From an uncultured Anaerolineaceae bacterium (GTDB taxonomy: Bacteria; Chloroflexota; Anaerolineae; Anaerolineales; UBA4823), in NCBI GenBank assembly GCA_964463505.1, contig CAYXDC010000006.1:9914-73913 (forward strand): a DNA stretch of 64,000 nucleotides. Direction: 5' to 3'. Positions 8,725 to 62,181 of the stretch are shown in pieces. The position numbers were made by a program, and so were the translations under genes. The notes beneath the pieces were generated by a model that saw only the letters and a program-made list of their open reading frames with translations, searched no databases and was not told the DNA's origin. Every line of letters starts with the position of its first letter. Within the stretch, counting starts at the first letter, position 1.

Positions 8725-10455
8725 ATGCCAAAAAAACGCTCTCTGGCTGTAATTTTAGCTGGAATTGTTGGCTTGAGCCTGTACCAGTATCGCCGGCAAT
8801 TGATTGGTCAGGCGCTGCGCTTGCGCCCGCCGCGCTATGGGGTGCAGGTACAGCGCAATATCCAGATTCCCATGCCGGATGGTGCGCTGTTGGCTGCCGA
8901 TCTGTATACCCCGCGCTCGCCCAGGCTGTTCCCTACCTTATTAATGCGCACTCCTTACGGGCGCGGCCTTACCGTTGGCCCGAGCGGTATGATGATGAGC
9001 TTTCTCGCGCAGCGTTTTGCCGAGCGTGGTTATAACTTACTGGTCCAGGATGTGCGTGGGCGTTTCGATTCCGGTTCCGATTTTGTGCCCTTTGTTCACG
9101 AAGCTGCGGATGGCCAGGCTACGATTGCCTGGATCGTGCGCCAGGACTGGTTTAACGGCTTGTTGGGCATGTGGGGAGCCAGTTATATCGGCTATACCCA
9201 ATGGGCGGCTGCGGCTGGCGCTTCACCATCCTTAAAAGCAATGGTCCCGGCGGTTACTGGCGCCAACCTCCCCGTGTCCTTCCTGAACCAGGGGGCTTTT
9301 GGGCTGGACACCAGCCTGCGCTGGATGTACGAACTGGATGCCATGCAGCGCCGCACCTGGTTGCGCAGCCTGTTGGGTCTGGGGCGTATGGCGCCCGTGA
9401 TCATGGAGCGCCGTTTGCGGGTGGCTGCCAACCACCTGCCGCTGGTGGATGTGGACCGCCTGACCACCGGCAATCAGGTTTCTTTTTACCAGGAATGGCT
9501 GCAGCATCCCAGCCTGGACGACCCTTATTGGCAGGCAGCCGACTTCTCAGCTCAGGTTGGGGGAGTTACTGCAGCCGTGCATTTCATTTCGGGCTGGTAC
9601 GATCTCTTCCTGCGCGACCTGCTGGCGGATTATGCCTCTTTAAGGCGCAGCGGGCAGCAGCCTTACCTGACGATTGGGGCCTGGTTCCATATGCACACCG
9701 ATCTGGCCAGTGAAAACCTGCGCCAGGGGATCACCTGGTTCGATGCAACTTTGAAGGGCGACCGGCGCGGGCTGCGCCAGGCTCCCGTACGCGTCTACGT
9801 GATGGGCTCAGACCAGTGGCGTGAATTTCCCGATTGGCCGCCGCCGGCGCAAAAGCAGGTCTGGTATTTGCAAGCAGGTGGGGACCTGGACCAACAGGCG
9901 CCTGCCAGTCCGGCGGAGCCCAGCCGCTATACCTACGACCCTCACGATCCCACACCGGCGCTGGGGGGTCCCCTGCTCAGCCTGAGCGCCGGCGCCACCG
10001 ATAACCGCCCGTTGGAAGCGCGCCCAGACGTGCTCACTTTCACCACCACACGCCTGCAGGCCGACCTGGAAGTGATCGGACCGGTACAGGCACGACTGTA
10101 TGTGCAATCCGACCGGGCGCATACCGACTTCTTCGCCCGCCTGTGCGATGTTTCTCCCAATGGGGAATCGCGCAATATCTGTGATGGTTTTCTGCGTTTG
10201 TTCCCCGGCAGCGCCGACGCCCAAACGGATGGCAGCCTGCGTATTGAGCTGGATCTATGGGCCACCGCGCACTGTTTCCGCGCCGGGCATTATCTGCGCC
10301 TGCAAGTCTCCAGTGGGGCGCACCCGCGCTTCGCCCGCAATCCCGGCAATGGTCTCCCGCTCAGCCAGGTGGTGGAAATGCTGCCTGCCCAACAAGCCCT
10401 CTACCATGATGTGGATCACCCATCTATGCTGGTGCTGCCGGTGATGCAGGATTGA
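8725..10455 (+). CDS. CocE/NonD family alpha/beta hydrolase (S15 X-Pro dipeptidyl-peptidase-like)
   Basis: 576 aa with an N-terminal TM anchor, LLMRTPYGRG, the nucleophile elbow GASYIGYTQW and a C-terminal jelly-roll-like domain. Confidence 0.8.
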   Translation: MPKKRSLAVILAGIVGLSLYQYRRQLIGQALRLRPPRYGVQVQRNIQIPMPDGALLAADLYTPRSPRLFPTLLMRTPYGRGLTVGPSGMMMSFLAQRFAERGYNLLVQDVRGRFDSGSDFVPFVHEAADGQATIAWIVRQDWFNGLLGMWGASYIGYTQWAAAAGASPSLKAMVPAVTGANLPVSFLNQGAFGLDTSLRWMYELDAMQRRTWLRSLLGLGRMAPVIMERRLRVAANHLPLVDVDRLTTGNQVSFYQEWLQHPSLDDPYWQAADFSAQVGGVTAAVHFISGWYDLFLRDLLADYASLRRSGQQPYLTIGAWFHMHTDLASENLRQGITWFDATLKGDRRGLRQAPVRVYVMGSDQWREFPDWPPPAQKQVWYLQAGGDLDQQAPASPAEPSRYTYDPHDPTPALGGPLLSLSAGATDNRPLEARPDVLTFTTTRLQADLEVIGPVQARLYVQSDRAHTDFFARLCDVSPNGESRNICDGFLRLFPGSADAQTDGSLRIELDLWATAHCFRAGHYLRLQVSSGAHPRFARNPGNGLPLSQVVEMLPAQQALYHDVDHPSMLVLPVMQD

Positions 10456-10483
10456 GCTTGCCCAGGTACGAATTGGAGTAGAT

Positions 10484-11053
10484 GTGATGCCTGATTTATA
10501 TGCTGGCTTACCGGCGCTGTGGCGGCGCAGGCTTATGTGGATTGCCAGTGGCGTATCCATCCTGGTGCTGTCTGTTTTCAATGGGATGGGTGCGCCGCTT
10601 ACCACCCCCGCAGCGCCCTGGGGTATGGTTTCTTTTCAATTGGCGCGCACACCCGAGCAGGTGCAGGCCATCCTGGCGAGCTGGGACGCGCTGACGCGCC
10701 AGGCGGCTGCTTTTTGCCTGGGATTGGATTACTTGTTCATGCCTGCCTACGCCCTGGCGATTGGCCTGGCAGCTCGCTGGGTTGGGGTGGCGCTGAAACA
10801 GCGCGGCTGGCCTCTGGCAGGCAGCGGGGTACCCCTGTCCTGGGCTGTGTGGCTGGCTGCACTGCTAGACGGGATTGAAAATGCTGCCCAGACCGCCATG
10901 CTTTTTGGCAGCAGCAATGCCATTTTGCCAGGGCTGACCTGGTTGGTGGCGATGGTCAAATTTGGCCTGGTTTTCGCGGCGCTGGTTTATGTTTTCTATG
11001 GGCTGGTGGTGCGTCTGGGGATCAAGCTGTCTGATTCTGCCCCGCAAGCCTGA
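10484..11053 (+). CDS. integral membrane protein, function unknown
   Basis: 189 aa with about 5 hydrophobic helices. ATG at 10487 follows GGAG. Confidence 0.55.
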   Translation: MMPDLYAGLPALWRRRLMWIASGVSILVLSVFNGMGAPLTTPAAPWGMVSFQLARTPEQVQAILASWDALTRQAAAFCLGLDYLFMPAYALAIGLAARWVGVALKQRGWPLAGSGVPLSWAVWLAALLDGIENAAQTAMLFGSSNAILPGLTWLVAMVKFGLVFAALVYVFYGLVVRLGIKLSDSAPQA

Positions 11054-11127
11054 TTGATTCTGCAACCATCTGGTGTCTGCAGCGTATATGGACTAGAAAC
11101 ACGTTCTTACACAGATGGAGGTTTGAG

Positions 11128-11994
11128 ATGAAAACGAAAGCTTTATTAGCCATTGTATTGGTGCTATCCCTGGCGGCCATGGCGTGCCGTGTGAACATCG
11201 ATCTACCAGAAATTGAATACAAGACCAGCGCAACCGTGACAGAGCAAGTCCAGGTTCCTGTTCCCGAGGGCAGCACCCCCGTGGATGTGAGCTTGAACTT
11301 TGGAGCCGGGCAGCTTAACCTGGATCCTGGCGCAGAGCAGAACCTGATCCAGGGGACAGCGACTTACAATGTGCCCGATTTCAAGCCGCGCCTGGTCACC
11401 ACGACCAGCGGGATTGAGCTATCGAGCGGTGAGCTAGAAATTAACGCCATCCCGCGCCTGGCTAATGACATTGAGAATCAGTGGGATCTGCAGTTAGGCA
11501 GTACACCCATGAACCTGAGGATCAATGCTGGGGCCTATCAGGGCCGCTATGAGCTGGGCGGGCTGGCGCTGACCGGTCTGGATATTTCCGATGGGGCTGC
11601 AGATGTAGAAGTCAACTTTGCTGAAGCCAACCTGGTGGAAATGGATACCTTGCGCTATGGCACCGGAGCCTCCCAGGTCAGCTTAACCGGCCTGGGGAAT
11701 GCTAATTTCAGCGATCTGATCTTCCGGGGTGGAGCGGGTAACTATACCCTGGACTTTGGGGAAGCTTTGCTGCGCGATGGGCGGGTAGATGTAGAAGTGG
11801 GCATCAGCAGCTTGCGCATTGTGGCGCCTGAGTCTGCCAACGTGCAGGTGATTGTAAGCGGTGGCCTGTCGAGTGTCTCGGCCAGCGGCGCCTGGAGCAA
11901 AGTGAACGATGAATACCGGCTGGACGGCACTGGGCCCAGCCTGGTGATCGAAGTCACCATGGGCGCCGGCAGTCTGGAGCTGCGCACGCCGTAA
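11128..11994 (+). CDS. secreted/lipoprotein-like beta-rich protein, function unknown
   Basis: Signal peptide ending LAAMAC, GGAGG Shine-Dalgarno, and a repetitive beta-strand-like pattern. Confidence 0.6.
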   Translation: MKTKALLAIVLVLSLAAMACRVNIDLPEIEYKTSATVTEQVQVPVPEGSTPVDVSLNFGAGQLNLDPGAEQNLIQGTATYNVPDFKPRLVTTTSGIELSSGELEINAIPRLANDIENQWDLQLGSTPMNLRINAGAYQGRYELGGLALTGLDISDGAADVEVNFAEANLVEMDTLRYGTGASQVSLTGLGNANFSDLIFRGGAGNYTLDFGEALLRDGRVDVEVGISSLRIVAPESANVQVIVSGGLSSVSASGAWSKVNDEYRLDGTGPSLVIEVTMGAGSLELRTP

Positions 11995-12784: not shown

Positions 12785-13282
12785 ATGTTCTATAAATTAC
12801 TTGCCGCGCTAGACCGCAAAGTTAAGTTCCCAGAAGCGCAAGCTCACTGTGATATCCCGTGCGGGATCTACGACCCGATTGTCGCGCAGATCAATGCGCT
12901 CACCGTCGTGCGTATGCTCGACTTGATGGCGGATCTGGATGCCACCACGGGCGATAAGCTGGCTTACCACAATTCGATGTCCCGCTATATCGCCGTAAAG
13001 GAAGAGCACGCCGAGAAAGCCAAGCACGAAATCCGCGTGATCTTTGGCGATTACATCAAAGCCCCTCATGTTGAAAAATATCCCGAGCTGCCCACCCTGG
13101 TGCACAAGATTATGATGGCCGGCTCCAAGGTCCGCCAGAGCACCGACCGGGCCGCGGCGGTGGAATTTGTGGAGTTGATCAACAAATTCGCCCAGATCTT
13201 CTGGGAGACCAAAGGCATCAGCACCAAGCGCGCCAAAGCGCCCTACAAGCCCGAGCTGGAGCTGGTTTACCCCAATCTCTAA
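12785..13282 (+). CDS. sodN: nickel-containing superoxide dismutase precursor
   Basis: Ni-hook HCDIPCGIYDP begins at residue 21, after a 20-aa propeptide ending AQA. YPELPTLVHK and IFWETKG regions match the NiSOD pattern. Confidence 0.9.
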   Translation: MFYKLLAALDRKVKFPEAQAHCDIPCGIYDPIVAQINALTVVRMLDLMADLDATTGDKLAYHNSMSRYIAVKEEHAEKAKHEIRVIFGDYIKAPHVEKYPELPTLVHKIMMAGSKVRQSTDRAAAVEFVELINKFAQIFWETKGISTKRAKAPYKPELELVYPNL

Positions 13283-18724: not shown

Positions 18725-19666
18725 ATGATCCAGACACAGGACCTGAGCAAACGTTTCGATAATTTCCTGGCCGTAGATGGTGTTACCCTTGAACTGGGCG
18801 CCGGGCAAGTTTTGGCATTGCTTGGGCCGAATGGCGCTGGAAAAACAACCACGGTGCGCATGCTCACCTCGATACTGCGACCTACCTCTGGCTGGGCGCG
18901 CGTGGCAGGTTGGGATGTCGCCACGCACCCGGCCCAAGTGCGGGCTGCCGTGGGCGTGCTGACGGAGCAGCATGGCCTGTACGGGCGCATGCGCGGGGAT
19001 GATTATCTGGATTTTTTTGGTCAGGTATATGGTTTAACCACCCAGCGCCGCCACCAGCGCACGCAGCAGCTTTTAGACCAATTTGGCCTGGCGCAGGATG
19101 GTCAGCGCAGGATTGCTGAATATTCCAAAGGTATGCGCCAGAAGCTGGCCCTGGCGCGGGCTTTGCTTCACGAGCCGCCAGTGCTGTTGCTGGATGAGCC
19201 TTCCTCCGCCATGGACCCCGAGAGCGCCCACCTGGTGCGCGATGCCATCCGGGACCTGCGCTCCGCAGAACGCGCCATCGTGATTTGTTCCCACAACCTG
19301 GCTGAAGCCGAAGAATTAGCCGACCAGATCGCCATCATTCGCCGCGGGCGCATCATCGCCCGCGGCTCTCCGGAGGCCCTTAAAGAGAGCTTGCTTGGCC
19401 CGTTGGAATTCGAGCTGCGCCTGGGCACGGTAACGAACGGTTCCCGGCCTCCACTGCCTCCGGCGGTTGAAATCACTGCATTTGGAGCGGATTGGCTGCG
19501 TTTCCGCACGCTCGATCCTCTGCGAGATAATCCGGAGGTCCTGCGCGCTCTGCTGGCGCACGGCTTGCCTGTTGTCAGCTTGCAGGAAGTACCGCGCAGC
19601 CTGGAAGAAGTCTATTTACGCGCCATCGCTGCACCTGCGGCAGAGGAGCTGCCCCATGCTGGATAG
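18725..19666 (+). CDS. ABC transporter ATP-binding protein (ABC-2 type)
   Basis: Walker A GPNGAGKTT, signature-like YSKGMRQK and Walker B LLLDEP. Confidence 0.9.
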   Translation: MIQTQDLSKRFDNFLAVDGVTLELGAGQVLALLGPNGAGKTTTVRMLTSILRPTSGWARVAGWDVATHPAQVRAAVGVLTEQHGLYGRMRGDDYLDFFGQVYGLTTQRRHQRTQQLLDQFGLAQDGQRRIAEYSKGMRQKLALARALLHEPPVLLLDEPSSAMDPESAHLVRDAIRDLRSAERAIVICSHNLAEAEELADQIAIIRRGRIIARGSPEALKESLLGPLEFELRLGTVTNGSRPPLPPAVEITAFGADWLRFRTLDPLRDNPEVLRALLAHGLPVVSLQEVPRSLEEVYLRAIAAPAAEELPHAG

Positions 19667-21077
19667 CCTGCGCCTGGCCTGGATTATTACGCGCCGCGAA
19701 GTGAGCGACCAGCTGCGCGACTGGCGTATCATCCTGCCGGTGCTTCTGTTGACCATTTTTTTTCCCGGTCTGATGAATTTCACCGCCGGTCAGATCACGG
19801 GTTTTGTGGAGAGCTACAACGCCCCACTGATCGGCGATCGCTTGATCCCTTTCTTGTTGATGATTGTGGGGTTTTTCCCCATCTCGGTGTCGTTGGTGAT
19901 AGCCCTGGAAAGCTTTGTGGGTGAGAAAGAACGCCACAGCATTGAACCGCTGCTCAGCTCGCCGCTCTCTGACGGGCAGCTTTATCTGGGCAAACTGGCT
20001 GCTGCCGTAATTCCTCCTTTGCTGGCCTCCTATCTGGGTATCACGGTGTACCTGATCGGGGTGTTTTTGGATGTGGGCTGGCGGCCCACATCCATGTTGC
20101 TGCTGCAGATCGTCTTGCTGACCACCGTGCAGGCGGTCTTGATGGTCAGTGGGGCTGTGGTGGTCTCCTCGCAAACCACTTCCGTGCGGGCTGCGAATTT
20201 GCTGGCTTCTTTTATCATTATTCCCATGGCTCTGCTCATCCAGGGGGAAAGTGTGGTCATGTTCTGGGGCAGTTATTCTAGCCTGTGGTGGATCATCGCG
20301 GGGCTGGCTGTGATTGCCGGCTTGCTGGTGCGCACGGGTCTGGCGCACTTTAATCGCGAAGAATTACTCGGGCGCGAGTTGGATTCGCTCAACCTGCGTT
20401 GGAGCTGGCGCGTATTCAGCCAGCAATTCCGTGGCGGAGCCCGCTCCTTGCGTGGCTGGTACCAGGCGCAGGTCTTCCCGGCAGCCCGCCGCCTGGGCAT
20501 ACCGGCGGCGATGATGTTGCTGGCGCTTGCCGCGGGATTGCTGGTCGGCGCCAGCCAGGCGCGGGTTTTTCCGCTTCCACTGGAAATGCTCAGCCTGAAT
20601 AGTCTGGATGATGGTTTTGTGGAAGGCCTGGAATTATTAAATCTCTTCTCCCCTTTGGGTGTGGGTACGGTCTGGCTGCACAACCTGCGCGCCATCCTGC
20701 TGGCAACCGTGCTGGGCATTTTTTCTTTTGGGGTTTTAAGCGTGCTGGTGCTGATGCTGCCATTTATGATCGTGGGGTACCTGGCGGCTGGGGTTGCCAG
20801 CGCAGGTACCAGCCCCGGGTTGTTCTTGCTGGCGTTCATTGCCCCCCATGGCATGTTGGAGATCCCGGCGCTGGCTCTGGCTGGCGCAGCTATCTTACGC
20901 ATCGGGGCTACTCTGGCTGCTCCGGCCGAGCATATGACTATTGGCGAAGCCTGGTTGCGCGCCGTGGCTGACTGGGCTAAAATTCTATTGGGTCTTGTGC
21001 TGCCCTTGCTCCTGGGTGCAGCCGCTATCGAGGTCCTGCTAACCCCGCGCCTGGCTGTCCTGCTCCTGGGCAATTAA
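19656..21077 (+). CDS. fused ABC-2 permease / SpoIIM (DUF95)-like membrane protein
   Basis: ATG 19656 overlaps the ATPase stop by 11 nt. The N-terminal half is a multi-TM ABC-2-like permease. The C-terminal half carries PHGMLEIPALALAGAAILRIG, typical of stage II sporulation protein M-like proteins. Confidence 0.7.
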   Translation: MLDSLRLAWIITRREVSDQLRDWRIILPVLLLTIFFPGLMNFTAGQITGFVESYNAPLIGDRLIPFLLMIVGFFPISVSLVIALESFVGEKERHSIEPLLSSPLSDGQLYLGKLAAAVIPPLLASYLGITVYLIGVFLDVGWRPTSMLLLQIVLLTTVQAVLMVSGAVVVSSQTTSVRAANLLASFIIIPMALLIQGESVVMFWGSYSSLWWIIAGLAVIAGLLVRTGLAHFNREELLGRELDSLNLRWSWRVFSQQFRGGARSLRGWYQAQVFPAARRLGIPAAMMLLALAAGLLVGASQARVFPLPLEMLSLNSLDDGFVEGLELLNLFSPLGVGTVWLHNLRAILLATVLGIFSFGVLSVLVLMLPFMIVGYLAAGVASAGTSPGLFLLAFIAPHGMLEIPALALAGAAILRIGATLAAPAEHMTIGEAWLRAVADWAKILLGLVLPLLLGAAAIEVLLTPRLAVLLLGN

Positions 21078-24532: not shown

Positions 24533-27199
24533 TCAGGGGGCTGGCGAAAGATCTATATTCAATGCCGCACTCAGCAGGGCGCGCCCGGCTTGCTGCGCAG
24601 CGACGGCTGGCGATTCTTCCAGCAGGACGACCACCACGCGCGCCGCAGAAGCATTCTCCGGCAGCGTTCCGCCTAGATACCAGGCTACCATCCCGGCTTC
24701 GCCCAGCGGCGCCAAGCCGCTGGCTTCCCAGACGAGCTGCTCTGGCAGAGCCAGTAGGCGCGCCGCGCGTTGGGTGCCGCCGGCGGGCAGGGCGTTTGCG
24801 GCTGTAGCTGCAGGTGGGAGCAGCACCCAGCCCGCCTGAGGTGTATTTACGCCCGTAGCCAGGCTGAGCGCCGGCAGCGAACCTGCATTGGTCAGCGCTG
24901 CTGCGGCGCGTGCCAGTTGCAGCGGGCTGATCTGCAGTGTACCGGTTCCCAGCGCTTCACGATCATCTTCCGGCCAGGCTGCCAGGCTGGTGCTACTGAA
25001 AGCCTCCAGACCGATCTCCGGCGGGCTAAAAAATCCCAGGCTGTTCAATAAATTCAGGCGTTGTGCAGGTTCTAGCGTCTCAACCAGGGCCAGTTGGGCG
25101 TCCGGGCACCCTGCAGCCACGCGCGTTCCCCAGGCCGCCTCGCCTTCGGGTAGTGCTCCCGGTGCCAGGGCGCAGTCCCGGGTTGAACCCACCAGGCTGC
25201 GCTCGGGCAGGTCTCCAGCCGCAGCCGCCTGCGCCAGGAAGAAGGGCGCTAGGCTGGTTCCGGGCAGGTAGCTGCCTTGCACTGCCCGATTGATCAGGGG
25301 TTTGGTGGGGTCGCCGATTAAAGTTTCCCATTGCGCTTCGAGCTGGTTGGAATCAAAAGTCGGGTGCGAAGCCAAGGCCAGGATCTCCCCGCTGAGCGCG
25401 TCCAGCAAAACCGCCGCGCCGCGCTGCTCGCCCAGGCTGGCATCTGCCAGGGTCTGTAAGGCAAGGTCCAGGCTCAGGCGCACATCCAGGCCGGGTGGAG
25501 GCTCACCATACACCAGGTGATTCCACCAGATGGTCAGCCCGGGATTGCCTTGCAAGCCGCGCAGGTAGGGGTCCAGGCTGGCTTCCAGGCCAGATTGCCC
25601 ATAAACCGGATTCGTATAGCCGACAACTGCGCTGAGCTGCGGGTAGCGGGTTACGCGGAGGTAGCTGCCAGACTCGCCCTCAGTTTCATTAATTGGGTTC
25701 AGATTGCGGTCGAGCAGCGCGCCGCGCTCGACATTGCGGTCGGAGATCACCCGGCGGGCGTTATCGGTGCGCCCCAATAAGTCTGGGCCACGCACCACCG
25801 CCCACCAGCCCAGTACCAGGGCCGCCCCCGCCAGACCCGCCAGGATCAGCGTTCCCAGGTGTAAGTATGGGCGGCTGGCGGATTGCGCCACCAGGCGTAC
25901 CGTCGGCTGGCTGCTGATCAGGATCAAGAGCAGGACTGCCACCAGAGAGGTTAGCAGCGACGAGCCGCCGTAAGAGACAAACGGCAGGGTCACCCCGGTC
26001 AGGGGCAGCAAACGCAGGTTACCGCCAATGATCAGGACGCTCTGCCCCCCGATGTAGGCGGTCAGCCCGCCTGCCAGCAAACGCCGGAAGGGGTCGGGAG
26101 CATGCAGGGCGATCTGCAGGCCGCGCCCGCTGAGCAGCGCTAACAGGGCCAGCAGCCCCAATCCACCTACCAGGCCGGTTTCTTCCACGATGGCGGCGAA
26201 GATAAAATCTGAATGCGGCACGGGCACCAGTCCGGGGTTGCCCAGGCCTGGCCCGCGCCCAAATACGCCCCCATTGGCGATTGCCAGCAGGGATTGGACG
26301 ATCTGGTAAGAACGCCCGCTGGGGTCCAGCCAGGGGTTGAGCCAGGCATCCATGCGCAGGCGCACCAAGTCAAACAGCAGCATCCCGGCCACACCTGCCG
26401 CGCTGATCACCAGCGCCCCGGTCACCGGTGCAATGCGCCGCCCGGTGCTGAGATAGATGATGGTTGTATACAGGAACAGGAAGATCGTAGCCGTGCCCAG
26501 GTCACGCTGCACCAGTAACAAGCCCAGCGCCAGGCCGGTCATCACCAGGGTGGGAGCCAACAGTCCCATCAGGACGCGCCGGTTGGGGTGCTGCCCAGCA
26601 GGCAGCGTGGCGCGCGGTTCGCCCAGGTAGGCTGCCAGATAGATCACCAGCAGTAATTTGAGCGGCTCGGAAGGCTGCAGATAAATCCCGCAGCAGCCCA
26701 GCCACATGCGTGGACCGTACCCCAGTGGGTTGGTGCCCAGCCACAGGGTCAGGCCCGTGAGCAGTAAGCCACTCGTGAGCCAGACGTATTTGTAACGCCG
26801 CAGGCTGCTCAAGTCGGGTGCCAGGCGGAATAAGCCCACGCCCAGCATGGCTGCCCCGGCGATAAACCATGCGCTCTGGCGCAGCCCTGCTGCGGGCCAC
26901 AGGCGGTAAATAGTCAGCAAACCCCAGCCCATCAGTAAACCGGTAAGCGGCAGCAGGTAGGGGTCGTGACGCTCCAGGCGGCGGTTAAGCCAGTTCTCCA
27001 GCAGCCTGATAAATGCCAGCCAGGCAGCCACACCGATCCAATGCTGCCAGCGCAGGTCCACAGGCCAGCTACGGGCGCGTACGGCTGGCGCCAAGCTGAG
27101 CGCTGCCGCATATACCAGCATAAACAGCGTCGCCAGGATCAGCAGGCGACGCTGCAGTTGTTGATCGGGAGTAGGGATCGGTCGTTCAGCGACACTCAA
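24533..27199 (-). CDS. fusion of SEDS glycosyltransferase (RodA/FtsW) and a penicillin-binding-protein-like domain lacking catalytic motifs
   Basis: N-terminal half: about 10 TM helices with PHSDFIFAAIVEETG and LPFVSYGGSS. C-terminal half: bPBP-like PLINRAVQGSYLPGTSLAP (where PGSTFKP is expected) and GTGTLQISPLQLARAAAALTNAG. There is only one Lys in the last ~455 aa. Confidence 0.8.
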   Translation of the reverse strand: MSVAERPIPTPDQQLQRRLLILATLFMLVYAAALSLAPAVRARSWPVDLRWQHWIGVAAWLAFIRLLENWLNRRLERHDPYLLPLTGLLMGWGLLTIYRLWPAAGLRQSAWFIAGAAMLGVGLFRLAPDLSSLRRYKYVWLTSGLLLTGLTLWLGTNPLGYGPRMWLGCCGIYLQPSEPLKLLLVIYLAAYLGEPRATLPAGQHPNRRVLMGLLAPTLVMTGLALGLLLVQRDLGTATIFLFLYTTIIYLSTGRRIAPVTGALVISAAGVAGMLLFDLVRLRMDAWLNPWLDPSGRSYQIVQSLLAIANGGVFGRGPGLGNPGLVPVPHSDFIFAAIVEETGLVGGLGLLALLALLSGRGLQIALHAPDPFRRLLAGGLTAYIGGQSVLIIGGNLRLLPLTGVTLPFVSYGGSSLLTSLVAVLLLILISSQPTVRLVAQSASRPYLHLGTLILAGLAGAALVLGWWAVVRGPDLLGRTDNARRVISDRNVERGALLDRNLNPINETEGESGSYLRVTRYPQLSAVVGYTNPVYGQSGLEASLDPYLRGLQGNPGLTIWWNHLVYGEPPPGLDVRLSLDLALQTLADASLGEQRGAAVLLDALSGEILALASHPTFDSNQLEAQWETLIGDPTKPLINRAVQGSYLPGTSLAPFFLAQAAAAGDLPERSLVGSTRDCALAPGALPEGEAAWGTRVAAGCPDAQLALVETLEPAQRLNLLNSLGFFSPPEIGLEAFSSTSLAAWPEDDREALGTGTLQISPLQLARAAAALTNAGSLPALSLATGVNTPQAGWVLLPPAATAANALPAGGTQRAARLLALPEQLVWEASGLAPLGEAGMVAWYLGGTLPENASAARVVVVLLEESPAVAAQQAGRALLSAALNIDLSPAP

Positions 27200-27202
27200 G
27201 GG

Positions 27203-28072
27203 TTACTGCGCCAGGTATTTCCCCACCAGCAAACTCAGGCGGCTGCGCATCTCGGGGGGGACTGCCTTGGGGTCGGTGATCAGCGCATTTTCCAGGGCGT
27301 TGCCGCATTCACAATCGCGCTGCGTCGCCAGGTCTGAAGCCAGCGTGAGAATAATTTTCTGCGCCAGTTGCAGGTTGCGGTTCAGGATCTCCACGACTAG
27401 ATCCACCGAAACCGGCGCTTCTGAGATATGCCAGACATCATAATCGGTGACATGCGCCATGGTGGCATAGCAAATCTCGGCCTCGCGCGCCAGGAACGCT
27501 TCAGGAGAGGCGGTCATGCCAATGATCGACATCCCCCACGCCCGGTAAGTATTCGATTCTCCACGCGTCGAGAAGCGCGGCCCTTCAATGGTCACCAGGG
27601 ACCCGCCTTTGTGCACCTTGGGGGTGCGTATCTTGGAGGCCGAGAACAACTGGGCGGAGAGGTCCGGGCAGAATGGATCGGCGACGCCGACATGTCCCAC
27701 CAGTCCTTCGCCAAAGAAGGTGTTCTGCCGCCCGCGCGTCAGGTCGAAGATCTGGTTGGGGATGACAATATCCCCGGGCGAGTAATCTTCGCGCAGGGAG
27801 CCGCAGGCACTGACGCTGACGATGCGTTCCACGCCGAGTGATTTCAGGGCGTAGATATTGGCGCGGTAAGGCACTTCACCGGGCATCAGGTGGTGTCCCA
27901 GTCCATGCCGGGAGAGAAATGCTACCGGAACGCCGGAAAGCTCACCCACGGTAATCGGAGAGCTGGGCTTGCCAAAGGGGGTATCGACTTCGAGCTGCTG
28001 GATTTTCTCCAGACCGGGCATGCTTTGCAGGCCGGTGCCGCCAATGACAGCAAGTTTGGGTTGTGTTTGCAT
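27203..28072 (-). CDS. mtnP: S-methyl-5'-thioadenosine phosphorylase
   Basis: KLAVIGGTG, FLSRHG and VSACGSL motifs of the MTAP/PNP family. Start at ATG 28072, preceded by GGAGGG. The stop lies 3 nt before the SEDS-PBP start. Confidence 0.88.
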   Translation of the reverse strand: MQTQPKLAVIGGTGLQSMPGLEKIQQLEVDTPFGKPSSPITVGELSGVPVAFLSRHGLGHHLMPGEVPYRANIYALKSLGVERIVSVSACGSLREDYSPGDIVIPNQIFDLTRGRQNTFFGEGLVGHVGVADPFCPDLSAQLFSASKIRTPKVHKGGSLVTIEGPRFSTRGESNTYRAWGMSIIGMTASPEAFLAREAEICYATMAHVTDYDVWHISEAPVSVDLVVEILNRNLQLAQKIILTLASDLATQRDCECGNALENALITDPKAVPPEMRSRLSLLVGKYLAQ

Positions 28073-28115
28073 GGGTTCGCCCTCCGCGTTCAAAATTAGC
28101 CTGAAGATTTCCGGC

Positions 28116-28550
28116 TCAATGAGAATGTTCGATCAGGACGTTTAGTTCGACCTGCCCACAGCGTAAGTGATCGCCGTGGGTGATCACCACCGGCTCGCCC
28201 ACAATCTCCTGGTTCAAGAGTGTGCCGTTGCGCGAATGCAAGTCTTCCAGCCACCACTGCCCGTGATGGAAACTCAGCCGGGCGTGGCGCGCAGAGATGG
28301 TGGGGTCGTCCAGGTGCAGGTCGCTGGCGGGATCGCGCCCCACCAGCACCAGCTGGGTATTGTAATAAGCGGGCTCGACCTGAGCATCGGCTGGCAGCAG
28401 CGCCAGGCGCGGGAATTGCGGTGCAGCCATATGCCGGCTGGCGGAGCGCAGGCTTTGCCAGGTCAGGTACAATGCCAGACCCAGAAAACCATACAGTGCC
28501 AGGGCTAAGATGGCGCGCAAGGCCAACAATAGCGGAGCGCTGAAGCTCAT
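28116..28550 (-). CDS. membrane-anchored FHA domain protein (FhaB/FipA-like)
   Basis: N-terminal TM helix, then an FHA pattern GRDPASDLHLDDPTISARHARL...SRNGTLLN. Overlaps the upstream gene by 4 nt. Confidence 0.85.
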   Translation of the reverse strand: MSFSAPLLLALRAILALALYGFLGLALYLTWQSLRSASRHMAAPQFPRLALLPADAQVEPAYYNTQLVLVGRDPASDLHLDDPTISARHARLSFHHGQWWLEDLHSRNGTLLNQEIVGEPVVITHGDHLRCGQVELNVLIEHSH

Positions 28551-29335
28551 CGGATCACCTCGGGGCCAGGTGAGAGCCGCCCGATATCCTGAGTCTCACT
28601 GGAGGGGTCTTGCCCGTACACCAGGGGCACGCCTGCCAGGGTGATTACGTCGCCAGGCGCCAGCAAGGCCTGCCGCACCCGCTCGCCGTTGACATAGGTG
28701 CCGCCGGTCGAATCCAGGTCAAAGATCAGGTAACGCCCGCGCACAGCTCGTAATTGGGCATGCACGCGCGAGACGCGCGCATCATTTACCACCAGGTGGT
28801 TATCAGAACGCCGCCCAATATTGATCACACTGCGCCGCAGGGAGAAAGCTTGCACGCCATCCACGATCAAAAAGGCATCCGGGGGGAATTCCCCGTTCTG
28901 CAGCCATTCATCCTGACTCAGGTCGCTGGTCTGGGCCAAGCCCGCCAGGCTGTTTTGAGAATGAATACTGACCTCGCTGCCATTCAAGGACGCTTCTACG
29001 TAAACACGCAAGACTGGAGGGCTGGAGAATGTAACTCCCGCCTGGGCCGCGGCTTCCTCTAGCGCCTGGCTGAGCTGGTCAAACAGGCCTGGATTGGCTT
29101 CCAGGAGCGCCATACGTTGTGGTGAGACAAACAAGGTATATAAATTAGGCGCAACCAGCTTACCATTGGCTTCCTGGTGTAGTCCGGTTTGCACTTCACG
29201 CGCCAGGCGTTGGGCCAGGTCTTCTTCCGGCGAGCCGCGCCCGAATAAGCGTGCCGCGCTGCCTTCGATAAGGTTTTGCAGGCGGGCTTCAATCTTTGCC
29301 AGGGGGTTGCGTGAGTTGGAGCGAGATGGTTTCAT
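28547..29335 (-). CDS. FhaA-like protein (DUF3662-type N-domain plus C-terminal FHA domain)
   Basis: N-terminus NPLAKIEARLQNLIEGSAARLF. C-terminal FHA pattern IGRRSDNHLVVNDARVSRVHAQL...GGTYVNGERV. Start at ATG 29335. Confidence 0.8.
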   Translation of the reverse strand: MKPSRSNSRNPLAKIEARLQNLIEGSAARLFGRGSPEEDLAQRLAREVQTGLHQEANGKLVAPNLYTLFVSPQRMALLEANPGLFDQLSQALEEAAAQAGVTFSSPPVLRVYVEASLNGSEVSIHSQNSLAGLAQTSDLSQDEWLQNGEFPPDAFLIVDGVQAFSLRRSVINIGRRSDNHLVVNDARVSRVHAQLRAVRGRYLIFDLDSTGGTYVNGERVRQALLAPGDVITLAGVPLVYGQDPSSETQDIGRLSPGPEVIR

Positions 29336-29395
29336 GGGCTCATTCACCCGGTTATTATAATGCAACCTGCGATGGATGAGCAGCCGTGTGGTTTG

Positions 29396-29437: not shown

Positions 29438-29866
29438 ATGGTTGCACCGGCAGGCTACCGCGAAATCGATCATGCCGCCGACTGGGAGCTGGAAGTCTGG
29501 GCGCCAGACTTGCCTGGCGTGCTGGAACAGGCTGCCCGGGGTATGCAGCACCTGGCAGGCTTGCGCCTGCAAGACGCGCCTGCACGCTTGCTTGAGCTTC
29601 AGCTAACTGCCGCCGACGCCGAAAGCTTGCTGGTAACTTTCCTGGGTGAGCTGCTCTACAGCATCGAACAACATAAGCTGGGTTTTAGCGATTTTGACCT
29701 GCACGTAAGCCAGCTACCCGAGGATGCCGGCCTGGAATTGCATGCCAGCTTGCAAGGGCAGCCCCTGCTGGCGCTGGAGAAAGAAATCAAAGCCGTCACC
29801 TATCACCGGCTGGAAGTGCAGAGCACACCGGCTGGATTGTGCACCCGGATCGTATTTGACGTCTGA
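29438..29866 (+). CDS. archease
   Basis: 142 aa with [14 protein letters not shown] (the archease N-terminal His-x-Ala-Asp motif), immediately upstream of rtcB. Confidence 0.8.
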
Positions 29867-29886
29867 CGGTGGGTGCGGAGGTTGAG

Positions 29887-31338
29887 ATGGTAAACCTGAG
29901 AGATTTAAAGAAGATCAGCGATTATGAATGGGAGATTCCCCAGAGCTACCGCGGGGATATGCGCGTCCCGGTGCGCATCTTTGCCAGCCGCCGCCTGCTG
30001 GAAGCGGTGATGGACGACAAATCCCTGGAGCAAGCTGTCAATGCAGCCTCTTTGCCCGGGCTGGTGGGGCAGGTCAACATCATGCCGGACATGCACCAGG
30101 GCTACGGCTTCCCCATTGGCGCGGTGGCTGCTACGCGCCTGCCCGATGGGGTCATCTCTCCCGGTGCAGTGGGCTACGATATCAATTGTGGGGTGCGCCT
30201 GTTAGCCTCCCCCCTTCAATATCCGCAGGTGGAGCCATACCTGGATGAATTAGCCACCACGCTTAACGCTTACTGCCCCAGCGGGGTCGGTGAGTCTGGC
30301 TCGGTGAAGCTCACAGATCACGACCTGGAGCAGGTCTGCCGGGAAGGCTCGAGCTGGGCGCTGAAAAACGGCTATGCCACCCCAACCGACCTACGCCGTA
30401 CGGAAGCCGGCGGGCGCCTTGAAGGAGCCGACCCTGCCAAAGTCAGCCTGCGAGCGCGCCAGCGCGGCCGCCCGCAGCTGGGCACCCTGGGCGCCGGCAA
30501 CCATTTTATCGAGGTTGATATCGTGGACCAGGTGTATGATTCCCGCGCTGCCCAGGCGATGGGCTTGCAAGAAGGCTGTCTGGCGCTGCAAATTCACTGC
30601 GGCTCACGCGGTTTCGGACACCAAATCTGCACCGACTACGTGCAGAGTTTCCAATCGGCTGTCAAACGCTATAATATTCACCTGCCCGACCGTGAGCTGG
30701 TGTGCGCCCCGTTGAACTCCCCTGAAGGCCAGGATTACCTAGCCGCCATGCGCTGCGCCGCAAATTATGCCTTTGCCAACCGCCAGGTGCTGGCATATCA
30801 CGCCCGGCGTGCCTTTGAAGCTGTCTTGGCAGTGAAAGGCCTGCCTTTTCAACTGCACCAGGTGTACGACATTGCCCATAATATGGCCAAGTTCGAAACG
30901 CATCTGATCGATGGCAAGCCAATGAAAGTCTGTGTGCATCGCAAGGGCGCCACGCGTGCCTTTGGTCCGGGGCACCCCGAGCTACCGGAAGAATATCGCG
31001 CCCTGGGCCAGCCGGTGCTGGTGCCAGGCAGTATGGGCACAGCCTCCTGGGTGCTGCTTGGCACCGAGGCCAGCATGGAGCGCTCGTTTGGCTCATCCTG
31101 TCATGGGGCGGGGCGGGTGATGAGCCGCGCCCAGGCCAAAAAACAGGTGCGCGGCGAAACGCTGCGGCGTGATCTCGAAAAAGATGGCATCCATATCCGG
31201 GCTGGCTCGCTGCCAGGCTTGGCCGAGGAAGCTCCGCAGGCCTATAAAGATGTGGACGATGTGGTAGCGGTGGTGTGTGGGGCGCAAATTGCTCGCAAGG
31301 TAGCCCGCCTGGTCCCGGTGGCGGTCATCAAAGGCTGA
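29887..31338 (+). CDS. rtcB: RNA 3'-phosphate ligase RtcB
   Basis: [26 protein letters not shown] and SSCHGAGR motifs. Start at ATG 29887, after GGAGG. Confidence 0.92.
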
Positions 31339-59850: not shown

Positions 59851-62181
59851 ATGATGTCCAGACGGGTCTTAATCTTTCAGAGCGACCCGCTCTCGGCCAA
59901 AAACCTAAGCCGCTATTTCCTGAACCACGGGGATCGGGTGTGGAAAACTGCCCGCTTATCCGAAGCGGTGGCATTGCTTGATTCCGAGCCGCCAGAATTG
60001 GCGTTGATTGACCTGGATGCCCCCGACGGTGCGGGGTTGGCGCTCATCCGCCAGTGTCGCCGGCGCGCGCCCATGGCGCAGATGGTCATCACCAATCGCC
60101 AGGTTGATTTGCGCGCCGAGCTACAGGCGCGTGAGTCGGGCGCAACAATATTCCTGCGCGAGCCCTTCACGCCTGAGTGGATCGAGCGCGCCTTGGTAAC
60201 GGATTCCCAGGCCAATCCCCAGCCCACACCGCCCACACCCGCCACGCGCCCTAACTTGCGCGTGCGCATGCCCATGCGCATCAAAATCACGGTTCCATAT
60301 GTGATCCTGGCGCTAACGTTTATCCTGATGACAGCTTTCCTGGTTGGGCGTTACGTCCAGGAATCCCTCCAGGAACGCTTCACCAACCAGCTTGCGGATA
60401 CCGGGCGCCTGGCAGCCGATTGGATGGTGGAAGAAGAGCGTCGCTTGCTGGAGACCTTGCGCCTGATCGCCAATACAGAAGGGGTTTCCGATGCAGTGGC
60501 AGCTGCAGAAGCCGATCGCTTGCATGCCCTGGTGCTGCCCCTAGCAATCAATGCCCAGGAAGAGGCCGTGGAGATCCTGAACCTGAGCGGAACGAGCTTG
60601 CTCAGCTTGCATCGCATCCCTGAGTCGACCGGAGAATATCGCTCCACGCGCAACAGCCGGCTGTTCGCCGATCTGCCCTTCGTCCAGCGGGTGCTAGCTG
60701 GCGACGTGGATACCCTGGGTGATAAATTTCCCGGGCTGGCAGGCGATGATACCGGGCAGGTATTTTATATTGCGGGGCCAGTGCGCGATCTAAACAACCA
60801 GGTGGTCGGTGTGGTGCTGGTGGGCAAGACCCTGCCCACCCTGGCTAACCAGCTGCGCCAGGCTACCCTGGCACACCTGACGTTTTATACCCCTGAGGGC
60901 CAGCCCTTGGCTTCGACCTTATTTGAAGCGACTGAGGTGCAGCCGCTCGATCCGGGGGAAGGACTCAACGTGCTGCTCCAGCAAGATAAGGGCAGCCTGC
61001 GGCGCGACCTGCAAAGCGCCTCCTCGATCTACACCGAAATTATTGGCCCGTGGGAGGTACGCAGCGGAGTGGACCTGGGATTGATGGGGGTCGCCCTGGC
61101 GCCGAACCTGCTGGCTGCACCGCGCCAGGCGACGGGTTTGCAGGCCCTGGTTTTTGTTGTGCTGATCTTCCTGGCGGTGATCCTGGTGGGTATATTGACC
61201 GCCCGCCAGGTCACCCATCCGCTGAAGCAGGTCGTGGATGCCTCCCAGCGTATCGCGGATGGCAATTTCCAGGTCAAGGTCAAACCCACTGGCAACGATG
61301 AAATTAGCGTGCTGGCGACGGCTTTCAACTACATGGTCGCTGGACTGCAAGAAGGCTCCATCTACCGCGATTTGCTGGGGCGCACCGTCTCACCGCAAGT
61401 GCGCGAGGCGCTACGTCAGTCCTTTGCCTCGGGCGAGCTTAAGCTGGAAGGGCAGAGCACCGAAGGCACTGTGCTGATGAGCGACATCCGCAACTTTACC
61501 AGCCTGGCTGAAAAAGAAGACGCCACCACGATCTTGAAGTGGCTGAATGAATATTTTGGTCGGCTGGTACCGGTGATCAACCAATTCGGCGGTGTCATCG
61601 ACAAGTTCGAAGGCGACTCCATGATGGCCTTTTTTGGGATCTTGCCAGCGCGCCTACCGGCAGAGGAGAGCAGCTATCAGGCCTGCCAGGCAGCCGTTGC
61701 CATGCTGCAGGTGGTCAACGACTATAATATGGAGCGCGCCGCGCGCGGCGATCCGCTATTGATCACTGGCCTGGGGATCAATACCGGCATGCTGATGGTG
61801 GGCGGTCTGGGGGCCAGCGATCGCCTGGATTACACGATTATCGGCGATACGGTCAACACTGCTCAACGCATGCAAGAGCTGACTCGCCAGTTTGGTGAAA
61901 CCGGCTGCGTGGTGGGTGAGAATACCCTGACTGTATTGCGCGAACGGCGCATGGATTTCCGTTTTGATCCGCTGGGCGAGCACGCCTTAAAAGGAAAATC
62001 TGAATTATTGTGGGTGTATCGCCTGCGAGCTGGCGAGGGCCAGCGCAAACGTCTGGATGAATCGGTTAAGCCGGATGGGCTAATTAACCCACCCGAAAAG
62101 AACGAGCAGCTTAGCGCCTCGGGAGACTCTCTTGAACCCACTCCCGACTCAACGGTGAAGGATGCCACCCCACAAGCGTAA
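59851..62181 (+). CDS. receiver-domain / extracytoplasmic sensor / HAMP / class III adenylate-guanylate cyclase
   Basis: N-terminal REC-like fold (LALIDLDAPDG), two TM helices flanking an approximately 290-aa sensor region, and HAMP (PLKQVVDASQRIADGNF...AFNYMV). Cyclase motifs VLMSDIRNFT, KFEGDSMMAFFG and IIGDTVNTAQRMQ. Confidence 0.85.
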   Translation: MMSRRVLIFQSDPLSAKNLSRYFLNHGDRVWKTARLSEAVALLDSEPPELALIDLDAPDGAGLALIRQCRRRAPMAQMVITNRQVDLRAELQARESGATIFLREPFTPEWIERALVTDSQANPQPTPPTPATRPNLRVRMPMRIKITVPYVILALTFILMTAFLVGRYVQESLQERFTNQLADTGRLAADWMVEEERRLLETLRLIANTEGVSDAVAAAEADRLHALVLPLAINAQEEAVEILNLSGTSLLSLHRIPESTGEYRSTRNSRLFADLPFVQRVLAGDVDTLGDKFPGLAGDDTGQVFYIAGPVRDLNNQVVGVVLVGKTLPTLANQLRQATLAHLTFYTPEGQPLASTLFEATEVQPLDPGEGLNVLLQQDKGSLRRDLQSASSIYTEIIGPWEVRSGVDLGLMGVALAPNLLAAPRQATGLQALVFVVLIFLAVILVGILTARQVTHPLKQVVDASQRIADGNFQVKVKPTGNDEISVLATAFNYMVAGLQEGSIYRDLLGRTVSPQVREALRQSFASGELKLEGQSTEGTVLMSDIRNFTSLAEKEDATTILKWLNEYFGRLVPVINQFGGVIDKFEGDSMMAFFGILPARLPAEESSYQACQAAVAMLQVVNDYNMERAARGDPLLITGLGINTGMLMVGGLGASDRLDYTIIGDTVNTAQRMQELTRQFGETGCVVGENTLTVLRERRMDFRFDPLGEHALKGKSELLWVYRLRAGEGQRKRLDESVKPDGLINPPEKNEQLSASGDSLEPTPDSTVKDATPQA

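Follow-up and report, generated by a model that had tools for sequence, protein, structure and literature searches.

What remains for a penicillin-binding protein of class B (a bPBP) to do when it is joined in one chain to its glycan polymerase and no longer has the residues needed for cross-linking? The question is raised by a gene within a 64,000-nucleotide stretch of DNA (hereafter, the window) from an uncultured Anaerolineaceae bacterium (GenBank assembly GCA_964463505.1, contig CAYXDC010000006.1, positions 9,914 to 73,913). The gene encodes, in this order, a SEDS polymerase of the FtsW/RodA type, an 11th transmembrane (TM) helix, and a PbpA-type bPBP ectodomain. The ectodomain is probably a pseudo-transpeptidase within a single-chain RodA-PbpA synthase, kept for a non-catalytic role while cross-linking is left to other enzymes. 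The gene and its parts are:

24533-27199, minus strand: the fusion gene, an 888-residue RodA/FtsW-PbpA single chain, with its stop codon at 24533-24535.
25907-27199, minus strand: the SEDS glycosyltransferase half, residues 1-431, about 10 TM helices (PF01098, 2e-69; structure matches).
25790-25906, minus strand: cytoplasmic linker and 11th TM helix, residues 432-470 (helix 439-469 in the AlphaFold2 model).
25424-25789, minus strand: PbpA-type pedestal, residues 471-592 (PF21922 is weak here; the family profile aligns with Mycobacterium tuberculosis PbpA).
24536-25423, minus strand: transpeptidase-fold domain without catalytic residues, residues 593-888 (AlphaFold2 pLDDT mostly above 90).

In the aligned sequences, all three catalytic motifs of a class-B PBP (SxxK, SxN, and KTG or KSG) are missing from the ectodomain. 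Their former positions were located with phmmer against Escherichia coli PBP2, with a HMMER family profile against M. tuberculosis PbpA and the Eggerthella lenta and Atopobium parvulum proteins, and with MAFFT L-INS-i, for which the reference sequences were rebuilt from the profile alignment. The remnants are:

25247-25258, minus strand: motif 1, T648-S-L-A651 in place of S-x-x-K (STFK, SSFK or STVK in the references), placed by phmmer, HMMER and MAFFT.
25103-25111, minus strand: motif 2, G697-C698-P699 in place of S-x-N (S-C-N in M. tuberculosis PbpA, SSN in the Coriobacteriia), placed by HMMER and MAFFT.
24716-24724, minus strand: motif 3, approximate, A826-S827-G828 where strand beta3 would carry K-T-G, placed by HMMER to 4mnr.

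The register of motif 3 shifts by a few residues under MAFFT, and the strand is without Lys in every member. Within motif 2, the Gly and the Cys are invariant among 62 aligned full-length fusions, and the Pro is present in at least 90% of them; from S-C-N, the middle Cys alone survives. The same loss is seen throughout the family. When 270 members were aligned to the family hidden Markov model (HMM), none paired Ser with Lys at motif 1. The former Ser position carries T, A, S, P or G, with E, N and M also found at 648, and the Lys position by G, A, T, S or Q, but never by Lys in full-length members; one 160-residue fragment (P0219) has Lys at the 651 position but Pro at 648. Across the 270, motif 2 is G-C-P nearly throughout, and the motif 3 positions vary. 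A preliminary description of the locus had proposed that the PBP half lacks the lysine-dependent motifs. Alignment to active PBPs upholds this and widens it to motif 2 and to the whole family. On the evidence of these alignments, the ectodomain cannot carry out canonical Ser/Lys acyl transfer, and acylation by beta-lactams through the canonical mechanism is predicted to be absent. Because the transpeptidase motifs are gone, the fusion has at most one activity left, rather than the two active sites of a bifunctional enzyme.

The proposal had leaned on a scarcity of lysine, a single one in the last 455 or so residues with no SxxK around it, and a count bears this out. The whole protein contains three Lys (137, 181 and 633), of which one lies within the last 455 residues, and no S-x-x-K pattern occurs anywhere in the 888 residues. 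Against the window mean, one Lys in 455 residues has a probability of about 5e-5. However, proteins encoded in the window are in general short of Lys and rich in Arg (2.7% K and 6.6% R, averaged across 27 genes, several having less than 1% Lys), and thus the Lys count taken alone says little; the case is carried by aligning the domain with active PBPs residue by residue.

A catalytic Ser/Lys pair that had moved elsewhere was sought by scanning the 62-sequence alignment for Lys, Ser and His, and was rejected, as no ectodomain column contains more than 16% Lys. Conserved Ser residues at 541, 611 and 758 lie outside the three motifs in segments that are conserved in active bPBPs too. The free variation of residues in the former cleft makes it unlikely that an active site has been relocated or re-invented there. 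There is also very little to recommend the idea that the ectodomain is still an enzyme of a non-canonical kind, using Thr648 or Ser649 as the nucleophile, or Cys698 or Cys676 as in L,D-transpeptidases. Thr or Ser is indeed found at 648-649 in the closest clade, and the only two Cys of the ectodomain are both invariant in the family, one of them inside the former SxN:

25172-25174, minus strand: Cys676, the invariant partner of Cys698, aligned with the upstream Cys of M. tuberculosis PbpA.
25106-25108, minus strand: Cys698, the middle of the former SxN, aligned with the middle Cys of S-C-N in M. tuberculosis PbpA.

Yet position 648 is variable over the family, position 651 is without Lys as described above, and no conserved Lys or His lies near the site. 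Moreover, a matching Cys pair is already present in the active M. tuberculosis PbpA, where the aligned residues are 16 positions apart, so that the pair looks like an inherited structural feature; for this reason its use as a new nucleophile was judged unlikely. The mycobacterial pair is presumably C266 and C282, a numbering of which the spacing has been verified. Cys676 and Cys698 probably form a disulfide inherited from an active ancestor.

Although its active site has been lost, the ectodomain is predicted to be well folded. An AlphaFold2 model, built from the alignment of 62 full-length fusions, has a mean pLDDT of 88 and a pTM of 0.83, and consists of a TM helix (residues 439-469), a pedestal and an alpha/beta domain. 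The extra TM helix that had been noticed between the two halves is thereby confirmed and corresponds to the PBP's own membrane anchor. Linker and helix make up the least conserved segment among the 62 fusions, yet they are kept in a variant that has no ectodomain (discussed later). When compared with the PDB by Foldseek, the model has as its top matches 4mnr (the E. lenta ectodomain), 3un7 and 3lo7 (M. tuberculosis PbpA), and 4jbf together with its penicillin complexes (A. parvulum), with E values of about 1e-17, a probability of 1.00 and target-normalised TM-scores of 0.68 to 0.76. Similarly, a profile made from 25 ectodomains matches 4mnr, M. tuberculosis PbpA and the A. parvulum protein over nearly their full length (E 4e-64 to 3e-56).

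Pfam models recognise the ectodomain less well. The Transpeptidase model (PF00905) scores 45.6 bits against a cut-off of 22.1, but through only the first 51 of its 299 positions, suggesting that the remainder of the domain has drifted. The pedestal model PBP_dimer_2 (PF21922) is below threshold in the fusion (19.8 bits against 27); it is recorded in many homologues, and the family profile meets M. tuberculosis PbpA from its residue 8. Pedestal residues R477, D479, N480, R482 and R483 are invariant among the 62 fusions. Thus, the protein has the membrane anchor, the PF21922-type pedestal and the PF00905-type fold that define a class-B PBP of the PbpA subtype.

The joining of the two halves is natural. 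The 2,667-nucleotide frame runs without interruption from a TTG start through 888 codons with no internal stop, as had been described, and the peptides by which the two halves were recognised are all present: PHSDFIFAAIVEETG (residues 328-342) and LPFVSYGGSS (405-414) in the polymerase, and PLINRAVQG (634-642), PGTSLAP (646-652), GTGTLQISPLQLARAAAALTNAG (751-773) and WYLGG (840-844) in the ectodomain. The FTSW_RODA_SPOVE model (PF01098) covers residues 106-431 (234.5 bits against a cut-off of 26.4, 2e-69), so that PF01098 and PF00905 lie on one polypeptide in the order glycosyltransferase, pedestal, transpeptidase, which is the arrangement of a SEDS-bPBP fusion.

Searches of protein and metagenome collections found an identical protein on an independent JGI contig and one that is 95% identical on an ENA contig. 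More than 100 full-length fusions with 50 to 95% identity were recovered, and the names given, where there are any, are Anaerolineales, Anaerolineaceae and Chloroflexota. An exhaustive search with the ectodomain alone among 1.84 billion cluster representatives returned 296 sequences at E values of 1e-30 or less. In all, the fusion is present in JGI, ENA, NCBI and Logan assemblies and at 25 or more genome loci, and the single-frame layout is kept in 174 proteins of at least 780 residues from many assemblies, with a conserved gene order around it. Relatives had been proposed as a test of the fusion and its substitutions, and both recur among them.

It can thus be said with near certainty that the fusion is not an artefact of sequencing, assembly or gene calling that has joined rodA to pbpA. 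This explanation draws on distant relatives in which rodA and pbpA are separate and adjacent, and on a few long-read copies that are frameshifted. It is ruled out by the intact frame and by the recurrence of the same fusion in hundreds of independent assemblies. The frameshifted copies, in which the fusion is split over two or three frames, come from long-read metagenome-assembled genomes (MAGs; L026 10001-12606 and L029 10544-12447) and most likely reflect indel errors rather than pseudogenes.

The separate genes do exist. Standalone proteins of the ectodomain family, 440 to 470 residues long, are encoded immediately after a separate FtsW/RodA gene, as in two loci:

L034, 6509-9335: a gene for a 461-466-residue FtsW/RodA protein, then a gene for a 444-472-residue PbpA-like protein, with tyrS and the genes of a Ser/Thr kinase and an FHA-domain regulator nearby.
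L037, 430-3286: the same split pair, in the same size ranges.

Separate genes with an intact STxK would have spoken for a false join; however, these standalone PbpA relatives are likewise degenerate: where SxxK has its Lys, they carry Glu or Gln. Catalytic loss is consequently at least as widespread as the fusion itself.

In contrast to the ectodomain, the polymerase half looks intact. Residues 118-428 match solved FtsW structures at an E value of 5e-30 and RodA structures at 1e-27. Two sites align with residues of Thermus thermophilus RodA:

26207-26209, minus strand: Asp331, which counting along the alignment puts opposite Asp255 (HTDF versus HSDF), the essential residue in the large extracellular loop of T. 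thermophilus RodA.
26657-26668, minus strand: E178-P-L-K181, opposite the Glu and Lys of QPLELAK in T. thermophilus RodA.

D331, E178 and K181 are invariant across the 62 full-length fusions, and K137 is nearly so; K137 and K181 are two of the three lysines of the protein. The half is read as a functional glycosyltransferase, a prediction made from these conserved residues, and the earlier view that it looked intact is in keeping with them. Its subtype cannot be assigned by sequence, since the TIGR equivalog models for ftsW (225 bits) and rodA (197 bits) both score under their cut-offs.

The conservation of the parts differs. Among the 62 fusions, mean column identity in the pedestal (0.73) comes close to that in the SEDS core (0.76, residues 106-431), and the transpeptidase body stands at 0.56. 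For the fusion and its 95% identical relative (L038), the ratio of non-synonymous to synonymous substitution rates (dN/dS), calculated by the method of Nei and Gojobori, is lowest in the pedestal (roughly 0.06), followed by the SEDS half (0.10) and the transpeptidase domain (0.13), values that come from one pair of genes. To judge from these rates, purifying selection still acts on the dead domain. Taken with the retention of full-length proteins in the 174 divergent members, whose ectodomain identity falls to about 35%, they exclude neutral decay.

Together, the retained anchor, a pedestal as conserved as the enzyme core, a folded head whose cleft varies freely, and an intact polymerase make up the pattern expected of a bPBP with a non-catalytic role. 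The N-terminal SEDS half would polymerise glycan strands. The C-terminal half, having kept anchor, pedestal and transpeptidase fold but not the Ser/Lys of SxxK, the Ser/Asn of SxN or the Lys of KTG, would contact the polymerase through its pedestal at extracellular loop 4 (ECL4) and switch polymerisation on, by analogy with RodA-PBP2 and FtsW-FtsI. The globular head would probably act as a lever or spacer, or offer a docking site, and cross-links would have to be supplied from outside, by an L,D-transpeptidase, a class-A PBP or a further bPBP. We infer both the mechanism of activation and the identity of the cross-linking enzymes from these better known systems.

Several observations weigh against such a retained role. 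First, the estimate of selection depends on one pair of sequences with few substitutions (24 non-synonymous ones in the transpeptidase domain). Second, in one Anaerolineae MAG (MFD09964.bin.2.169, locus L024) the gene at 9992-11404 encodes 470 residues and ends right after the 11th TM helix. The whole ectodomain has been deleted, while the preceding gene order (FhaA, a membrane FHA protein, and a methylthioadenosine phosphorylase [MTAP]) is kept and tyrS begins 36 nucleotides beyond. Thus, the ectodomain is not indispensable everywhere. Third, no enzyme that could supply the cross-links is encoded nearby: Pfam scans of the window found no other PBP or L,D-transpeptidase, and the family HMM, which detects canonical bPBPs too, found none in 690 kb of related loci, a result that does not extend to the rest of the genome.

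The clean deletion in that lineage, and the fact that the transpeptidase body is the least conserved folded part, could be taken to mean that the domain is a functionless relic in the course of being lost. This is hard to credit, given the low dN/dS of the domain, its confident AlphaFold2 fold, and its presence at full length in so many divergent proteins.

Other work on bPBPs suggests how a dead domain might be of use. In RodA-PBP2 and FtsW-FtsI complexes, the TM helix and pedestal of the bPBP bind the polymerase, and polymerisation is switched on when a conformational change opens the bPBP (PMC10257715). The SEDS core of the fusion aligns with those of T. thermophilus (6pl5), E. coli (8tj3) and Pseudomonas aeruginosa (8bh1), and the catalytic Asp is kept; unlike the fusion, these complexes are non-covalent, have a pedestal of the PF03717 type and contain an active bPBP. 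According to a 2025 survey, inactive bPBP variants still support division if another bPBP can cross-link (PMC12516126). That survey and a second paper indicate, from Bacillus subtilis PBP2B and Clostridioides difficile SpoVD inactivated in the presence of a back-up bPBP, that the non-catalytic role is separable from cross-linking (PMC12516126; PMC12713402). Those point mutants are lab-made, whereas the inactive state of the fusion is natural, ancient, fixed in a clade and covalently joined to the polymerase.

The same systems offer a variant explanation, in which the main use of the dead domain is to dock other proteins, bringing a regulator or a separate, active transpeptidase to the polymerase. 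In the survey's account, an alternative bPBP of B. subtilis or C. difficile drives division only when the inactive canonical bPBP is present, and contacts between bPBPs are described (PMC12516126); furthermore, the transpeptidase body of the fusion is under purifying selection even though its cleft residues vary. Nevertheless, conservation is highest in the pedestal, not in the head, and among about 30 genomes none has a PBP gene linked to the locus. A role mainly in docking is therefore considered unlikely, though less so than residual catalysis or decay, and it overlaps with activation of the polymerase by a pseudo-transpeptidase, the explanation preferred here.

The gene context bears on the identity of the polymerase. 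The fusion is the last of four closely packed genes on the same strand, preceded by:

28547-29365, minus strand: an FhaA-like protein with FhaA_N and FHA domains (PF12401 and PF00498), overlapping the next gene by 4 nucleotides.
28116-28550, minus strand: a small membrane FHA protein, FhaB/FipA-like (PF00498; synteny).
27203-28093, minus strand: an MTAP-like purine/methylthioadenosine phosphorylase (PF01048), ending 3 nucleotides before the start of the fusion.

The gap between the small FHA gene and the MTAP gene is 22 nucleotides, and a convergent tyrS lies downstream of the fusion. The order FhaA, membrane FHA protein, MTAP, fusion is common to about 30 Anaerolineae MAG loci. It resembles the actinobacterial locus fhaA-fhaB-pstP-rodA-pbpA-pknA-pknB (PMC6554272) in having FhaA and a small membrane FHA gene upstream, but it contains neither the PP2C phosphatase nor the kinases; a kinase and an FHA regulator are close by only in the split-gene locus L034. 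On the strength of this likeness and of the PbpA-type pedestal, RodA-PbpA is the best orthology call, so that the polymerase is assigned as RodA rather than FtsW by its gene context and its PbpA-type partner.

The M. tuberculosis RodA/PbpA system shares with the fusion the PbpA pedestal and transpeptidase fold (E 1e-61, TM-score 0.75), the Cys pair and the upstream FhaA/FHA genes. It differs in that RodA and PbpA are products of separate genes and PbpA is active and binds beta-lactams, while the fusion locus has MTAP in place of pstP, no kinase after the fusion, and the convergent tyrS. In all of the roughly 30 loci, the MTAP gene stands between the FHA genes and the fusion, where Actinobacteria have pstP (PP2C), for no obvious reason.

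The fusion architecture itself is not new. The 2025 survey counts 117 InterPro proteins with both domains, which it names putative "bifunctional bPBPs"; it illustrates them with a Coriobacteriales protein that has a PbpA-type pedestal, and contains the 931-residue protein of Senegalimassilia faecalis (PMC12516126). Indeed, the 4mnr ectodomain is 100% identical to part of a protein that carries PF01098, PF21922 and PF00905; the A. parvulum ectodomain has been crystallised with penicillins bound (to go by the PDB titles), and active fusions have thus had solved ectodomains since 2013. These Coriobacteriia fusions (E. lenta 4mnr, A. parvulum 4jbf, S. faecalis) have the same order of SEDS, TM helix, PF21922 pedestal and transpeptidase fold, and give the best profile and structural matches. 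However, their STFK or SSFK, SSN and KTG motifs are intact, and identity in the structural alignment is only about 20%. A search of full-text literature found no description of a clade-wide degenerate pseudo-transpeptidase that is fused to or partnered with a SEDS protein, nor of the Anaerolineae proteins. What appears to be new is this degenerate, clade-wide form.

Its interest lies in the two jobs of class-B PBPs, cross-linking and SEDS activation, which have so far been parted only by lab-made point mutants. The fusion offers a natural, single-chain system for the non-catalytic job, in which one can ask what parts of the surface are conserved and whether a pedestal by itself would suffice. 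Another question it raises is which enzyme cross-links the strands that the fusion makes. Furthermore, it bears on annotation, as the labels "bifunctional" or "penicillin-binding" are given from domain content alone, and a protein so labelled may have one activity or none.

A connection with antibiotic response has also been considered. Thermomarinilinea lacunofontalis, an isolate of the class Anaerolineae, is reported as insensitive to 50 ug/ml of ampicillin or penicillin G, whereas vancomycin inhibits it, in a test carried out at 60 C, where beta-lactams are unstable (PMC4070665). These results are consistent with, but not proof of, wall machinery that depends little on PBPs, and the link between motif loss and beta-lactam insensitivity is circumstantial. 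The insensitivity of such an isolate may rest on the structure of its wall machinery.

A bolder extension, offered as speculation and with the odds against it, is that the SEDS machine of the Anaerolineae, and of the lineages with split, degenerate rodA-pbpA, has long been without a cognate D,D-transpeptidase. The bPBP would then be purely regulatory, cross-linking would fall solely to unrelated enzymes, whether L,D-transpeptidases (YkuD or VanW type) or class-A PBPs, and the wall machinery would be largely penicillin-insensitive.

Elsewhere in the window, an archease and RtcB RNA-ligase pair (29438-31338, plus strand) is divergent from the FhaA operon and keeps this position in many related loci. 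A 536-residue open reading frame (19467-21077, plus strand) joins an ABC-2 permease region to a SpoIIM domain at its C-terminus and lies downstream of an ABC ATPase gene. It overlaps the 3' end of the ATPase frame, and its real start may be further downstream; the arrangement of ABC ATPase and ABC-2/SpoIIM protein is kept in several related loci. The window also contains a nickel superoxide dismutase gene (Sod_Ni, 4e-47) at 12785-13282 on the plus strand and, at 59851-62181 on the same strand, the gene for a 776-residue signalling protein with receiver, dCache, HAMP and adenylate/guanylate cyclase domains.

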